A stretch of DNA of 57,127 nt from a virus (IMGVR_UViG_2597489870_000006:1-57127); one strand, 5' to 3'. Positions 2,168 through 5,791 are shown, numbered from the stretch's first letter. The notes: generated by a model not told the origin, from the letters alone. Program-made: numbers and translations.

Positions 2168-4285
2168 CTAGTCATTATCTGGATCATTAGATAGCCAAGT
2201 AATGATGCCCAGTCTGGCGATGGTCCGTTTTTCCTGTTCAGGAAGAGAGTTAAAAAAACTCTTCCATTGAGGGGAGCGCCTGATACGTGAATCAACAATG
2301 TGCCCAGGCGCTTTTCCGTGTAGATTTTTTACTGCGCTCTGGAAGGCTGGCGAGGCAATTAATTTATCCGCAGCATCAGCCGCCCCTGCTCCACCAGCTA
2401 ATCGAGCTTTACTCGCCAATCTTGCTCCAATATCAGCCCCAGCAATGGCTCCAAGCGATCCAAAATGAGCGCCTACCATCGTGCCTATTTTTTGAATGTG
2501 TTTTGCTGCTAGTTCGTATGGAGCTGTTACCCGATTAAATCTGTTTACAAACTCATTCAGCTTACCAGTAGATATTTCATGCGCTTTAGCATTTTTTATT
2601 GCTCTGGCAACTTTGTATACATCATATAGTCCGCTCATTGTTTCTTTTGGCAAATGTTCAGCCAAAGTCTTTAGCTGTCCACTGTGTTGCAAGTTTTGCC
2701 ACCAATCTGCAAAGCCAGATGGATTAAAGTCGGCCCCACGCTTCCCAGAGGAAAGCATATCTCTTAATGCTGTTCCTACTAGCTCCCTTCGCAATGTTCT
2801 TGATGGAGTATTTTGCATAATCTCACGAAACCCTCTCGCATCACCTTTTGCCATAGATTGAAGAGAATTCGTTACTTTATACGCTATATCCCCATTAAGT
2901 GTTTTCCCGCGAAGATTTACCATTTGCCTTTCTAAGTTTTTTCTCATAGCTACAAGGCGTTGTGCGACTTCGAAATCTCGCAAGTATCCAGTATTGGATA
3001 AGACAGATTTTTGGTCTTCAGCTAAAGCTCCATATAGTCTTGATAGCGCTTCTTTATCAGCATCTTTGTATGGCCCCTGCTTTTTATTTAGGGCATCACC
3101 AACTAAACGCCTTTGCCTGTTTAAATTTGCATACGTTAGGATGCTATCTGGGCCGGGGTTTATTGCTGTAAAAACTCGCTTTTCTATTGGGTCAAGATTA
3201 TCCCACCCTCCTAAATCATCAGCGATTTTTTCCAGCATAGTGCTTGTGTTATTTGCTTCGACTTTTGTTCTTGGTGATAGAGCGGAATCAACACGTTTAT
3301 ATAACTGATCACTACGGTTTTTTAGTGCTTCCATTCTACTATTTATCTGATAAATATATTTTTCGCTCATAGCTAACGCATCTGGCGCACCAGCAACATC
3401 ATCGATTATCTTGCCAGCACTAGAGGCTAATTCGCTTATTGCTTTATCTTCTTGAGCTTTTAACGCTGATCCTGTCCGTGACTTTAGGGCTTGCTCTACA
3501 GCTTGGTATTGCTCATTTCCTGATAAATGAGAAGGAAGAACTGAATCAACATGAAGCCTATTTGCAGCCTCAACAATTTCTTTCTGAGGTTTTAGATCTA
3601 GCCCTTCAAGCGAAGAGGCAAGATTTGGGTTGCCTTGTGCAGATAACTTACGAATTTTCTCTTCGGCAGGAGTAATCCCCTCAATATCTGGAATCGAAGA
3701 AACATTCTTCTTGGTTAATTTCCCAGCTATTTTATTAATTGCAGGGCCAGCAAGTTCGGCTACAGGGCCAGCCACAGCGCCAATAGCAGCGCCGGAAGCA
3801 ACATCGCTATTTGTTCCATTGGCTACAATAGCCCCTTCTCCAGCACCAAGCCCTACGGCGGCAGCCAGTCTTGCCGCCCCTTTGGGAACCTGAGAAATAA
3901 TCCCACCACCACTAACAAATGGCGCTGCTTGTCCAACGAACTCACCAACATCTTGTGCGGTTGATGGTTTTGCCGCTAACTTCTGCTGTAGAGACTGAAT
4001 TGCGGCTTGCTCTTCTGGTGTCATATCCTGAAACAGGCCAACACCTTTACCAACATCCATCAATCCACTGAGAACGCCATACATAAAACGGTCGAAACCG
4101 TTAGCATTATTAACAACATTTTCCTGTCTGGAATTTTCCTCTGGTGAAACCAAAGGTGATTGCTGCTGTTCTGGTTGGGCATCAAGCACAAAACCATCAG
4201 GAAGCTGTGAACTATCAGGAAACTGTGAGTTATCAGGTTGTTCATCGAGCACAAAACCTTCCGGTAAGATTACATTTGCTGCCAT
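2168..4285 (-). CDS. large hypothetical protein (705 aa) with N-terminal tandem repeat and two glycine-rich hydrophobic segments
   Basis: ATG at 4285 with SD aggaa; PEGFVLDEQP/PDGFVLDAQP repeat; Gly/Ala-rich stretches; no family recognised. Confidence 0.55.
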   Translation of the reverse strand: MAANVILPEGFVLDEQPDNSQFPDSSQLPDGFVLDAQPEQQQSPLVSPEENSRQENVVNNANGFDRFMYGVLSGLMDVGKGVGLFQDMTPEEQAAIQSLQQKLAAKPSTAQDVGEFVGQAAPFVSGGGIISQVPKGAARLAAAVGLGAGEGAIVANGTNSDVASGAAIGAVAGPVAELAGPAINKIAGKLTKKNVSSIPDIEGITPAEEKIRKLSAQGNPNLASSLEGLDLKPQKEIVEAANRLHVDSVLPSHLSGNEQYQAVEQALKSRTGSALKAQEDKAISELASSAGKIIDDVAGAPDALAMSEKYIYQINSRMEALKNRSDQLYKRVDSALSPRTKVEANNTSTMLEKIADDLGGWDNLDPIEKRVFTAINPGPDSILTYANLNRQRRLVGDALNKKQGPYKDADKEALSRLYGALAEDQKSVLSNTGYLRDFEVAQRLVAMRKNLERQMVNLRGKTLNGDIAYKVTNSLQSMAKGDARGFREIMQNTPSRTLRRELVGTALRDMLSSGKRGADFNPSGFADWWQNLQHSGQLKTLAEHLPKETMSGLYDVYKVARAIKNAKAHEISTGKLNEFVNRFNRVTAPYELAAKHIQKIGTMVGAHFGSLGAIAGADIGARLASKARLAGGAGAADAADKLIASPAFQSAVKNLHGKAPGHIVDSRIRRSPQWKSFFNSLPEQEKRTIARLGIITWLSNDPDND

Positions 4286-4524
4286 TTTCCGTTCCTGTAA
4301 ATGATTTTCTGACCAGTTTTAGGGTTGGTTGCCGTTGCGCCTTCTGATATTCCTCCGGTTGCCGCTTTTGCCTGTCCAGTGCCAGCCTGTGATGTAGGCT
4401 GCCCGGAAACATCGTCAAATAGCTTCGCTTTCCTTCTTTCAAGGCTTTTTCTTAGCCCCTGAGGAATAGTTTCTCCATATGTATCGAGATACTCGTCAAC
4501 CTGCTGGTTAAACTGCTGCCCCAT
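4270..4524 (-). CDS. hypothetical protein (84 aa)
   Basis: ORF between the 334-aa and 705-aa genes, overlapping the 705-aa start by 16 nt. Confidence 0.4.
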   Translation of the reverse strand: MGQQFNQQVDEYLDTYGETIPQGLRKSLERRKAKLFDDVSGQPTSQAGTGQAKAATGGISEGATATNPKTGQKIIYRNGKWQQM

Positions 4525-4620
4525 AGCATTGGCGTTGATTTTTGCGGCGTTAACAATGTTATCCTTTGCCTCCTGCGACAGGCCGTTTCCAGCATTAAGC
4601 TGGTCTATGTATCCTTTGAT

Positions 4621-5625
4621 TTATCCCCATATGCCATCAGACCGCATTACCTGAACCTGTTCGCCTTCACGAACGACTGACTGCGGGTCAAGAGATTTCA
4701 TGTAGTTGAAGATAATCCCAAGTTGGGCAGCGCCAGTATTTACCTTGCTAAGGGCTTGCAGAGAGTTTGCCGCCGCTCTGACAGAGTTATAATTTTTGCC
4801 AAAATTGGTAATGTCAGAATTTAATCCCTTAATTAAGTCTGCTGACGGCTTACCTTTTTGCCCCAGCTCCATTAGCTTCAATCCCATCTCATCTGAGTGA
4901 ATTTGTGCTCGCTGAGCCCTGTCTAGTTGAGCGTTCTGGATATTTGCCCATCCTCTCGCGTTCTCCATGTCAGCCTGACGCATACTTTCATCCAGTCGCC
5001 CTTGCTCAAGTCGACGACCTTCCATTTGATCTTTGATATCGAAATACTTCTCATGACCGAGAGAAAACAGCGCCAGATTACCTGCGAAATGCTGGAAGCC
5101 CTGCGGGTCATTAACCTGCATTTCAGCAATAGTTTCTGGAGGGATACCTAAACGACGCATCTCCTGCTCATTATCCATCATGAACCTGCCAAATGCGCCC
5201 TGACCAAGCGATGAGGCTACCTGTGCTTTGAGCGCCAGATTGCCATAATCATCCCTTTGAGCATCATCGACATAACTCATCCCTTTACGGACTTCCTCAA
5301 ACTCTTCTGGGAATGCTGTAATAAGATTACGCATCTGCTCCCTGTCACCGGACGCATAAGCATCTGCATAACCTTTCTGGAATGCCGCTTTACGTTCCTG
5401 CTGTTGCTGCTGCTTATAAATGTCAGCAACTCCAGCCAGACCACGAAGACCTGTCAGAGCAACGTTATTTGCACCTGAGCGAGCCAGTTCATTGTTTTCG
5501 CGGATCAGACCAAGCGTTGCGTTAATGTCGCTTGCCTTTGGCGCATTCTCATTTTGCGCACCGATGCCAGCCAGAAAACCACCAGAATTAATACCCTGTT
5601 GCCACGTAGCCATAAATTTACCCAC
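4621..5625 (-). CDS. hypothetical coiled-coil-rich protein (334 aa; track start is GTG at 5625, alternative ATG at 5613)
   Basis: Long ORF, Q/E/R-rich helical composition; start overlaps stop of upstream small gene. Confidence 0.55.
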   Translation of the reverse strand: MGKFMATWQQGINSGGFLAGIGAQNENAPKASDINATLGLIRENNELARSGANNVALTGLRGLAGVADIYKQQQQQERKAAFQKGYADAYASGDREQMRNLITAFPEEFEEVRKGMSYVDDAQRDDYGNLALKAQVASSLGQGAFGRFMMDNEQEMRRLGIPPETIAEMQVNDPQGFQHFAGNLALFSLGHEKYFDIKDQMEGRRLEQGRLDESMRQADMENARGWANIQNAQLDRAQRAQIHSDEMGLKLMELGQKGKPSADLIKGLNSDITNFGKNYNSVRAAANSLQALSKVNTGAAQLGIIFNYMKSLDPQSVVREGEQVQVMRSDGIWG

Positions 5626-5791
5626 GTCCAGTTAAAGTGTAAGCCAGCGCCTTATCCATTAATCCCCGAGCAATTTCGTGGATCGTTGGCGCAACTCCTA
5701 CCTCTGATTTTTTACGCTGCTCCTCCTGAATTTTCTTTATCGCTTCCATTTGCTTCTCACTTATCAATACTGGCTTTACTGAAATAGCCAT
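5618..5791 (-). CDS. small hypothetical protein (57 aa), first gene of the cargo operon
   Basis: ATG at 5791 preceded by SD aagggggg; TATAAT -10 element about 17 nt further upstream on the minus strand. Confidence 0.4.
   Translation of the reverse strand: MAISVKPVLISEKQMEAIKKIQEEQRKKSEVGVAPTIHEIARGLMDKALAYTLTGRG

Follow-up and report, generated by a model that had tools for sequence, protein, structure and literature searches.

We analysed a window of 57,127 nt that is 100% identical to the chromosome of E. coli ETEC H10407. Its minus strand carries a compact operon, whose features and surroundings are collected in Table 1. An earlier note on this DNA had described four co-directional genes with tight or overlapping boundaries. 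The common orientation is real and the boundaries were confirmed, with 4 nt between the stop of a 57-aa ORF and the ATG of the next gene, whose own stop overlaps the start of a 705-aa gene by 16 nt. However, the genes number three, as the ORFs listed as 334 aa (4621-5625) and 84 aa (4270-4524) share one frame and are pieces of a single interrupted gene.

Table 1 Features of the late operon and its surroundings (window positions unless stated otherwise).
Feature	Position	Strand	Basis or remark
Distal att core TCCTATTATC, exact	L001:16293-16302		~1.7 kb left of window position 1
131-aa multi-pass membrane protein, WP_001363070.1	1753..2148	+	three hydrophobic segments; P22 sieA position
gp16-position ejection protein gene, intact, 705 aa	2168..4285	-	phrog_6704, phrog_770, Kapi1_058
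P22 gp20-type ejection protein gene, 447 codons	4270..5613	-	ATG at 5613; PF16928, phrog_917
57-aa leader ORF, WP_001018522.1	5618..5791	-	first gene of Late-zone operon
Shine-Dalgarno AAGGGGGG of leader ORF	5796..5803	-	sequence
Palindrome CTGT-N8-ACAG, LexA-box-like by sequence	5808..5823	.	directly downstream of -10; overlaps expected transcription start
-10 hexamer TATAAT (perfect), late-operon promoter	5826..5831	-	sequence; upstream alignment
Intrinsic-terminator-like site	5888..5919	-	hairpin 5919-5895 + T-run 5894-5888; sequence, terminator scan
Repeat cluster, direct and inverted, GGTACAGGTGG-type, iteron-like	6285..6388	.	between replication genes and operon
Zn-ribbon/Toprim/DUF5906 primase, PICI replication zone (context)	7528..9876	-	Pfam
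Integrase-proximal att, 46-nt copy of thrW 3' end	15897..15942	.	1 mismatch, in core; adjoins island integrase
Real thrW	55684-55759

The interrupted gene is of the P22 gp20 type. Codon 331 is changed from CAA to TAA (4621-4623), which splits the 447-codon frame into the two ORFs; ORF calling produced the 84-aa ORF as an artefact, and the RefSeq entry for the gene reads 'phage DNA ejection protein, internal stop'. PF16928 (Inj_translocase) matches residues 16-223 at 248.3 bits, above its curated cut-off of 29.7 (E 9e-74). The N-terminal piece also matches phrog_917 (E 2.7e-119), the family into which P22 gp20 itself falls, and the 84-aa piece matches the C-terminus of this profile (E 9e-09). 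Identity to P22 gp20 amounts to 54% over the N-terminal 212 aa. At the DNA level, the gene is ~90% identical to gene 057 of phage Kapi1. This similarity spans gp20 and the 5' end of the gp16-position gene and breaks off sharply right where gp20 begins, which shows recent exchange with phages; the overlap between the two genes is laid out identically in Kapi1 057/058.

A 45-mer around the TAA was found only in H10407 and SEC470, while SF-166 and Kapi1 read CAA. The full-length frame (about 440-490 aa) absent from H10407 is intact in SF-166, AST240, EN-1077 and Kapi1. The H10407 gene is thus a pseudogene through a private nonsense mutation. Because gp20 and gp16 must act as a matched pair (see below), in H10407, where gp20 is cut at 330 of 447 residues, the module has most likely lost its function and may be decaying.

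The 705-aa protein encoded downstream matches phrog_6704 over its full length (E 4.6e-174) and phrog_770 over residues 113-654 (E 1.5e-50; P22 gp16 matches the latter with E 2e-266), and it aligns end to end with Kapi1_058 at 41% identity. BLASTP gave no pairwise similarity to P22 gp16 (E 0.48), an outcome to be expected, given that P22-like phages have gp16 proteins with only 22-26% mutual identity (PMC10883804). The protein is a mosaic: its N-terminal ~180 aa are ~95% identical to Kapi1_058 and residues 204-701 are 63% identical to the Sf101 homologue, the phage collection holding no match above 63% for the C-terminal two thirds. The N-terminal repeat and the two Gly/Ala-rich hydrophobic segments reported before were both recovered, the repeat as LP(E/D)GFVLDxQP(D/E) at residues 7 and 28 and the segments with 44-45% G+A. 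The segments are explained by the full-length homology to ejection proteins, and they are the one feature seen that bears on a possible packaging of the product into virions, its ejection and its insertion into a membrane. The earlier note had recognised no family for either large protein and had proposed a remote homology search. Pfam and PHROG models placed both in phage ejection families. A remnant of phage ejection-type proteins, one of the options it had left open, turned out to be the right one.

A gene for a 131-aa protein lies 20 bp past the stop of the gp16-like gene and converges with it. The order gp20, gp16 and a convergent small membrane gene is the counterpart of 20-16-sieA in P22, and the post-gp16 gene resembles sieA in being convergent, small and membrane-embedded. 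In contrast to SieA, the window's 131/141-aa protein lacks sequence similarity (BLASTP against P22 SieA, E 2.1), the FxRYPxEAxxFNK motif and any PHROG match, and no phage homologue was found for it. Sequence and motif speak against its membership of the SieA family (phrog_7745), while topology and position fit. The 204-aa proteins in the same slot of two sister islands (L004 and L019) possess both SieA similarity and the cytoplasmic motif with its RYPxEA core, and in several islands the slot gene is a true SieA homologue with a RYPGEA motif. A convergent gene for a small envelope protein is always present 3' of the gp16-like gene.

Upstream of the operon, the promoter and Shine-Dalgarno sequence claimed earlier stood in part: the -10 hexamer and the ribosome-binding site are present, but there is no recognisable -35 and a consensus promoter scan gave no call. 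When 21 upstream regions were aligned, taken from E. coli, Serratia, Erwinia, Pantoea, Klebsiella and others, a block, TTTCAT-N5-TGCAAT ... TGAAAC-TATAAT-N-ACTGT, proved to be kept across genera; the promoter is conserved and probably activator-dependent. Two CTGT-N8-ACAG sites occur in 57 kb against 0.69 expected, which is not significant by count alone; in the same alignment, the LexA-box-like palindrome next to the -10 is kept in position and sequence in the E. coli and Serratia versions. The terminator-like site that divides the replication/ori region from the late operon was confirmed in the sequence, and it was also called in the terminator scan.

The leader ORF opens the Late-zone operon in the EcCIMP1-like PICI family across Enterobacterales, with a length of 53-61 aa and 21 invariant columns among its homologues. 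Pfam and PHROG searches gave no family match. An AF2 monomer model (pLDDT 74.5) consists of helices 12-28 and 37-53 following a disordered N-terminus, and Foldseek returned no PDB entry at E<=0.001. This two-helix fold is compatible with a ribbon-helix-helix protein without being diagnostic. No similarity to ribbon-helix-helix regulators was detected by hhalign against P22 Arc and Mnt (probability <1%) or by Pfam.

The island itself is a relative of EcCIMP1, the PICI of E. coli MP1 that has been characterised experimentally and is mobilised by the P22-like helper vB_EcoP_Kapi1 (Pick, Stadel & Raivio, ISME J 2025, PMC11773190). The EcCIMP1 gene order int-AlpA-AntA-DUF4222-ash-primase-leader-E genes-PerC is matched in H10407, and the PerC, pRiA4b-ORF3 and AlpA proteins have identical accessions. 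As judged from RefSeq features and Pfam matches, integrase and AlpA, the Bro-type zone (AntA/ash), primase and origin, and the Late zone are co-oriented, and the island contains no capsid, terminase or tail genes. It measures ~17.6 kb and has at either end a direct repeat of the att core that derives from thrW, a core common to EcCIMP1 (core from PMC11773190); a 38-kb prophage separates it from thrW. Based on its sequence, the GGTACAGGTGG-type repeat cluster is the probable origin of replication, and mapped PICI origins lie in the Replication zone beside the primase (PMC10111431). PICIs follow a four-zone plan of Integration, Bro, Replication and Late, the last consisting of captured helper late genes (PMC10111431). 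Gene order and att core bear out the former placement in a P4/PICI-like island. Judging from the ejection-protein homology and the island family, we assign the operon to an EcCIMP1-like PICI integrated at thrW in E. coli H10407, whose Late zone it forms. The candidate novel cargo system is overturned by this homology together with the conserved P22 synteny. Helper-dependent excision, replication and transfer are shown for EcCIMP1 only (PMC11773190), and a search of H10407 at megablast sensitivity turned up no further gp20-like locus that could belong to a helper.

Leader ORF and promoter region occur in ~455 of 5426 complete E. coli genomes. The co-occurrence analysis suggested earlier found the leader joined to gp20 (the gp20-gp16 version) in 217 genomes and to gp14 (the gp14-gp7-gp20-gp16 version) in 258. 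Each of the 11 relatives sampled has intact ejection genes, and dN/dS between PICI-borne copies is 0.03-0.30 in most informative pairs, reaching at most 0.58 in one gp14 pair. The ejection genes are therefore not random cargo but a core module that nearly every island of the family carries and that is under purifying selection. Of the degenerate and not co-conserved ORFs that the earlier note had considered, degeneracy applies only to the private nonsense allele of H10407 gp20. In relatives, a variable accessory region near PerC holds Abi, ImmA and RnlAB genes, whereas the ejection genes lie in the conserved Late zone. PADLOC-DB defence models gave 0 matches for 8 operon and neighbouring proteins at E<=0.01, and the authors of EcCIMP1 reported no known defence system by PADLOC and DefenseFinder (PMC11773190).

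What follows the leader varies between genera. In E. coli and in Serratia, whose layout is the same, it precedes P22-type ejection proteins. T7-gp14-like and transglycosylase-type internal core proteins take this place in Leclercia, Klebsiella, Pectobacterium and one metagenome contig, tape-measure proteins with an upstream 108-aa partner in Erwinia, Pantoea, Chimaeribacter and Lonsdalea, and a baseplate hub in Rahnella. We found no description of this pattern of leader and delivery genes across genera in the searchable literature.

EcCIMP1 shares with the H10407 island the thrW locus, the att core and the backbone of int, AlpA, AntA, DUF4222, ash, primase, leader, ejection genes, PerC and pRiA4b-ORF3. 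It differs in its four late genes, namely gp14, gp7, gp20 (439 aa) and gp16 (906 aa, including a transglycosylase domain), in its primase of the DUF927 type and in the lipoprotein that comes after gp16. H10407 carries two late genes, gp20 and gp16, as other alleles with gp20 broken, plus a DUF5906 primase, two extra small genes and the prophage before thrW. The EcCIMP1 ejection genes have been termed 'DNA transfer/DUF2824' packaging candidates, and structural genes were stated to be absent (PMC11773190). With the gp20/gp16 ejection proteins of P22, Kapi1 and Sf101 (PMC10883804, PMC8954989), the H10407 copies have in common family HMM matches, gene order, overlapping stop and start, mosaic variation and a convergent downstream membrane gene as in P22 16-sieA. 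Unlike those, they reside on a satellite devoid of capsid, portal, tail and terminase genes, where a satellite-specific leader ORF and promoter replace gp14/gp7 upstream. The Late zone of Gram-negative PICIs (Williams lab, PMC10111431) agrees in its position downstream of primase and origin and in its captured prophage late genes, but capsid genes are the commonest captured there and lambda/P2-based categories are used; podovirus ejection proteins and the conserved leader ORF are not described in that work. A possible parallel is SaPIbov5 Ccm (PMC8569155), along with capsid-forming PICIs, in which a satellite version of a helper structural protein enters helper-built particles. These appear to act on capsid size or shape, whereas the H10407 copies would be injected, envelope-penetrating proteins.

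We propose, with a probability of roughly 0.6, that the Late-zone ejection genes were captured from P22-like phages (Lederbergvirus) and that their products serve as an alternative injection conduit in helper capsids. Here, gp20 would be the periplasmic and gp16 the membrane-active ejection protein. In intact relatives, the PICI proteins would be made upon induction of a P22-like helper and be built into its procapsids, either together with the helper's ejection proteins or in their place. Once a particle has adsorbed, they would form a trans-envelope DNA-delivery conduit for particles from PICI-carrying cells, whose injection apparatus would thereby be unlike that of the helper. A possible benefit would be entry into cells guarded by SieA-type injection blocks, e.g. 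helper lysogens.

Foreign sets of ejection proteins assemble into P22 virions and function, gp16 and gp20 being required as a matched pair while gp7 is exchangeable (PMC10883804), which fits the existence of a minimal gp20-gp16 variant. The PICI set is not the same as that of its helper: EcCIMP1 and Kapi1 proteins are 83% (gp14), 57% (gp7), 26% (gp20) and 24% (gp16) identical. HK620 ejection proteins escape SieA in part (PMC10883804); P22's own, however, are sensitive to its own SieA, so such escape by the PICI set is only a possibility. Against the conduit role speak Kapi1 titres unaffected by EcCIMP1 and a low EcCIMP1 transduction frequency (PMC11773190). Moreover, ejection proteins are loaded before DNA packaging and a satellite thus cannot steer its own to its own particles only. 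The broken gp20 copy of H10407 likewise counts against this role, as does the negative megablast result for a further gp20-like locus in that strain. The SieA homologues beside ejection genes in family PICIs fit a defence role at least as well as a conduit role.

Satellites commonly disrupt helper virion assembly, as SaPI and P4 exemplify. The divergent satellite gp20 and gp16 might co-assemble with the helper's ejection proteins, poison the conduit of the progeny and lower helper infectivity, to the gain of host and satellite. P22 in which just one of the two proteins, gp16 or gp20, is foreign indeed yields non-infectious particles despite incorporation of that protein (PMC10883804), and the PICI proteins are only 24-26% identical to those of the helper. 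Such interference nevertheless seems unlikely to us, given that Kapi1 titres are not lowered after induction (PMC11773190), that poisoning would affect the particles of the satellite to the same degree, and that a complete matched pair, often with gp7 and gp14, is unnecessary for poisoning and yet kept. It is improbable, too, that the module is a captured remnant or spare copy without function, left when part of a P22-like prophage recombined into the island and carried along by hitch-hiking. The ~90% Kapi1 identity with its sharp junction, the documented capture of late genes by PICIs (PMC10111431) and the H10407 nonsense mutation would suit a remnant. Its presence in essentially every family member, its intactness in the sampled relatives, purifying selection and retention across genera behind the same promoter and leader do not, and only one strain has the nonsense allele.

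Defence of the resident cell, with ejection-protein homologues and the envelope protein of the sieA slot blocking DNA of incoming P22-like phages (superinfection exclusion), would agree with the constant envelope-protein gene, the true SieA of several islands, and the superinfection immunity against Kapi1 that EcCIMP1 adds without a known defence system (PMC11773190). We give this reading little credence: there is no known route by which ejection proteins synthesised in the cytoplasm would reach the place in the periplasm where the conduits of incoming phages are built, the Sie-slot gene alone explains exclusion more simply, PADLOC gave no match, the window's own slot protein lacks SieA similarity, and the full tape-measure proteins and baseplate hubs of other genera are implausible exclusion factors. 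Accessory regions of satellites often hold defence genes, and the Gly/Ala-rich segments might suggest a new membrane-active toxin, effector or anti-phage system unrelated to virion function. This is very improbable, as full-length ejection-protein homology accounts for the segments and largely refutes the reading, defence models gave no match, and the genes lie in the conserved Late zone instead of the variable accessory region.

Returning to the conduit reading, we tentatively consider that in EcCIMP1-like PICIs of Enterobacterales the conserved promoter and leader, located downstream of primase and origin, always precede genes for helper-type proteins of genome delivery and envelope penetration, and that satellites may customise virion injection. 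If PICI proteins enter helper-built particles, satellites would tailor the way in which hijacked virions inject. This might bypass superinfection-exclusion proteins aimed at the helper conduit and so allow entry into helper lysogens.

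Escherichia coli H10407 carries a phage-inducible chromosomal island (PICI) resembling EcCIMP1, and its late module is a P22-type pair of DNA ejection proteins. The window is 100% identical to the H10407 chromosome (NC_017633.1), and the four minus-strand ORFs described by an earlier note at window 2168-5791 are present there. The note's reading of the 334-aa and 84-aa ORFs as separate genes did not hold up: both lie in the same frame of a single 447-codon gene with one in-frame TAA at codon 331, which RefSeq labels 'phage DNA ejection protein, internal stop'. A frameshift as the cause of the split was ruled out, since the two pieces share one frame. 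The earlier observation was thus real but mis-parsed.

The 447-codon gene scores 248 bits against Pfam PF16928 ('DNA/protein translocase of phage P22 injectosome'; cut-off 29.7) and matches phrog_917, of which P22 gp20 itself is a member, with an E-value of 3e-119; the 84-aa piece aligns with the C-terminal part of the phrog_917 profile. The N-terminal 212 residues of this gp20-like product share 54% identity with P22 gp20, and at the DNA level window 3813-5614 is ~90% identical to Kapi1, a P22-like phage. The neighboring 705-aa protein, whose N-terminal repeat and two Gly/Ala-rich segments are real, matches phrog_6704 from end to end (E = 5e-174) and phrog_770, 'DNA transfer protein', with an E-value of 1.5e-50; P22 gp16 belongs to phrog_770 as well (E = 2e-266). 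Its full-length alignment with Kapi1_058, the product of the gene that follows gp20 in Kapi1, gives 41% identity overall and ~95% within the first ~180 residues, and residues 204-701 show 63% identity to the Sf101 homologue. Pairwise BLAST gave no significant match between the 705-aa protein and P22 gp16, as expected from the hypervariability of the gp16 family (PMC10883804). A PDB sequence search with both large proteins returned no matches.

Read leftward, the island encodes AlpA, AntA, DUF4222, ash, a Zn-ribbon/Toprim/DUF5906 primase and two small genes, followed by a non-coding stretch rich in iterons and then by the operon and PerC. At its distal end, ~1.7 kb past window position 1, the att core TCCTATTATC recurs without mismatch. 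EcCIMP1 has this att core, occupies the same locus and shares the gene order as well as several identical proteins; it is a PICI of E. coli MP1 whose excision, circularisation and transduction occur only with its P22-like helper Kapi1 (PMC11773190). The arrangement also agrees with the published four-zone scheme for Gram-negative PICIs, where late genes that the island has acquired from helper prophages lie in a 'Late zone' beyond the replication zone (PMC10111431). From this likeness and this fit, we conclude that the operon represents this zone in an EcCIMP1-like PICI. The locus adds a new, partly decayed member to a known island family. The suggestion of a novel cargo system is unsupported; the genes belong to known phage protein families. 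PADLOC defence models gave no matches to the operon or neighboring proteins.

The thrW site is occupied in tandem, with a complete myovirus-type prophage located between the real tRNA gene and the PICI. This prophage has its own integrase adjoining thrW, an HK97-type head, sheath, tube and baseplate genes, and a pinE invertase. Within the thrW fragment on the PICI side, the att core differs at one position, a mismatch that might hinder excision of the PICI.

Features of the H10407 island and its surroundings (window coordinates)
Feature	Position	Strand	Remark
PerC-family protein	1-282		WP_000617443.1
151-aa protein	533-988		
66-aa protein	1068-1268		
131-aa multi-pass membrane protein gene	20 bp after 705-aa gene	convergent	P22 sieA position
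gp20-like gene	4270-5613	minus	447 codons
In-frame TAA	4621-4623	minus	codon 331
Shine-Dalgarno AAGGGGGG	5803-5796	minus	sequence
LexA-box-like palindrome CTGT-N8-ACAG	5808-5823		directly 3' of operon -10
-10 TATAAT	5831-5826	minus	sequence
Hairpin + T-run	5919-5888	minus	sequence + scan
Direct and inverted repeats GGTACAGGTGG / CCACCTGTACC	6285-6388		between replication genes and operon
thrW fragment, 46 nt	15897-15942		beside second integrase
Myovirus-type prophage	16500-55680		
Second CTGT-N8-ACAG site CTGTATATAAAAACAG	49502-49517		inside neighboring prophage
thrW	55684-55759		real tRNA gene

The TATAAT hexamer, the Shine-Dalgarno sequence and a terminator-like hairpin upstream of the operon were confirmed. 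The promoter has no -35 element, and a consensus promoter scan made no call there. A promoter block is kept across genera (window 5835-5880 and the aligned regions of 20 other loci) and reads TTTCAT-N5-TGCAAT ... ATT(G/T)CA-N6-TG(A/C)AA(C/T)-TATAAT, likewise without a -35. This block looks like activator binding sites; candidate activators are AlpA, a helper factor or the leader protein itself. The palindrome next to the -10 is kept in the E. coli and Serratia versions, and other genera show CTG-N9-CAG at the equivalent position. In the whole window, two CTGT-N8-ACAG patterns were observed versus 0.69 expected; as a LexA-type site, the operon copy is suggestive only, and the second is a candidate for a genuine LexA box. 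The dense repeat cluster upstream of the operon is probably the PICI origin of replication. The leader ORF at the head of the operon encodes a 57-aa protein, for which searches of Pfam, PHROGs and NCBIfam, and tblastn in 50,697 phage records, yielded no matches. A gp7 remnant was rejected as its identity. An RHH identity is conjecture; hhalign against Arc and Mnt and Foldseek with an AF2 model were negative.

Directly after the genes for the ejection proteins (E genes), the islands that we looked at usually carry a small envelope-protein gene. In this slot, where P22 carries sieA, some islands encode a true SieA homologue with an RYPGEA motif and others a signal-peptide protein, a lipoprotein or multi-pass proteins. 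The 131-aa protein of H10407 was rejected as a SieA, as it has neither similarity, motif nor a phage homologue. In EcCIMP1, the gene after the gp16-like gene (L007 12632-13330) specifies a protein of 232 aa that bears a lipoprotein-type signal (LSLSLLAGC). Superinfection immunity of EcCIMP1 against Kapi1 was published as a phenotype without explanation (PMC11773190), and this putative lipoprotein is a candidate for it.

An extension of the phage-derived stretch past gp16 to an immI-like region was considered and rejected, because the 66-, 131- and 151-aa proteins have no Kapi1 or P22 homologues and the 151-aa protein is also a backbone gene of the PICI family, with identities of 98% in other E. 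coli islands, 70% in Serratia and 64% in Erwinia. The 66-aa protein is tail-anchored by a C-terminal hydrophobic segment and matches phrog_6324. In relatives, the variable cargo site lies between the Sie-slot gene and PerC (L004, L006, L009, L010, L011, L014, L021 and L022) and holds Abi_2/Abi family proteins, an ImmA/IrrE peptidase pair or RnlA-RnlB; H10407 has only small ORFs without assigned function there. Its PerC-family protein is identical to EcCIMP1_025. H10407, an ETEC strain, is not known to carry LEE. EcCIMP1_025 represses LEE1 expression in Citrobacter rodentium (PMC11773190).

P22 packs gp7, gp20 and gp16 into its capsid and ejects them to form a DNA conduit across the cell envelope; foreign sets, if complete, are incorporated into P22 virions and are functional (PMC10883804). 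Gp16 and gp20 need to be a matched pair and gp7 is exchangeable. SieA stops injection through its action on gp20/gp16, with partial escape by some foreign sets (PMC10883804). The need for matching explains why the minimal PICI variant retains exactly gp20 and gp16. Between EcCIMP1 and Kapi1, the one validated PICI-helper pair, protein identity is 83% for gp14, 57% for gp7, 26% for gp20 and 24% for gp16. Thus, the satellite conduit differs from that of the helper and is not a backup copy. We propose that the operon would be expressed upon helper induction, that its products would be loaded into helper procapsids, and that particles from PICI-carrying cells would inject DNA through a PICI-specified conduit. 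A plausible gain would be entry into cells whose Sie proteins guard against the helper's conduit; among these would be helper lysogens, the best recipients for a satellite. Alternatively, but less likely, the E-proteins of the PICI could poison helper virions, or they could form an exclusion function in the resident cell together with the Sie-slot gene. The E genes could also represent a neutral capture.

The module is core, conserved and under selection. The leader ORF and its upstream region are present in 455 of 5426 complete E. coli genomes at a coverage of ≥80%. The leader is joined to gp20, as in H10407, in 217 of these complete genomes and to a gene for a DUF2824 protein, a P22 gp14 homologue, in 258; the latter type has the full P22 order 14-7-20-16. 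All 11 sampled relatives have E genes annotated as intact. Pairwise dN/dS among PICI-borne copies is 0.03-0.27 for gp16, 0.19-0.30 for gp20, 0.10-0.12 for gp7 and 0.11-0.58 for gp14. At least three gp20/gp16 allele classes occur on near-identical backbones, so exchange with phages is continuing.

The stop codon in gp20 is private. Only H10407 and SEC470, whose record has the same length, contain a 45-mer with the TAA at its centre. In SF-166, where the copy is 99.9% identical, the codon is CAA (Gln) and the 447-aa product is intact; the 705-aa protein differs by one residue from that of the window. Kapi1 likewise has a Gln codon (CAG) at the corresponding position. A conserved internal stop, i.e. 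programmed truncation or read-through, was rejected on the grounds of this confinement and of CAA in the 99.9% identical copies. Gp20 of H10407 was inactivated recently; the truncation most likely disables the gp20/gp16 pair, and the island is therefore probably impaired in the role of the module. At megablast sensitivity, we detected no second gp20-type locus in H10407 and hence no obvious resident P22-like helper. Relaxed selection would be a reasonable explanation for the stop codon.

Leader ORF homologues of 53-61 aa were found in other Enterobacterales (L010-L018, L023-L037), where they are preceded by the same primase backbone (Zn-ribbon/Toprim/DUF927) and by a promoter block that is strongly conserved. 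All loci examined have genes for genome-delivery or penetration proteins directly after the leader, in Escherichia sp. as judged from ORF lengths (153/225/473/412+ aa, the pattern of the E. coli four-gene type). Serratia carries P22-type gp20 with an SLT-gp16, and Leclercia, Klebsiella, Pectobacterium and one metagenome contig a T7_gp14-family protein with transglycosylase-type internal proteins (845-890 aa). Raoultella has a tape-measure or injection-transglycosylase-like protein of 605-608 aa, and Klebsiella quasipneumoniae an SLT-domain protein (671 aa) followed by a Dit-like protein. A full tape-measure protein (857-1188 aa) follows a 108-aa partner in Erwinia, Pantoea, Chimaeribacter and one further NCBI assembly; it is split or truncated in Lonsdalea and Serratia silvae. 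Rahnella has a baseplate hub. Our literature search for satellites encoding ejection, internal-virion or tape-measure proteins returned only a brief mention in the EcCIMP1 paper and the general Late-zone concept, and no description of the leader ORF joined to genome-delivery genes was found. The EcCIMP1 paper, the sole experimental study of this family, identified no phage structural genes and treated these genes as packaging candidates (PMC11773190).

Taken together, an 'unknown cargo' in the window now has a concrete annotation, and the remaining interest lies in the role of satellite-encoded injection proteins and in their cross-genus pattern. Each family member's matched conduit set and usual Sie-slot protein are testable candidates for transfer and immunity. 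These conduit sets, along with the tape-measure and internal-core genes of other genera, suggest that satellites can tune DNA entry besides capsid size and packaging.
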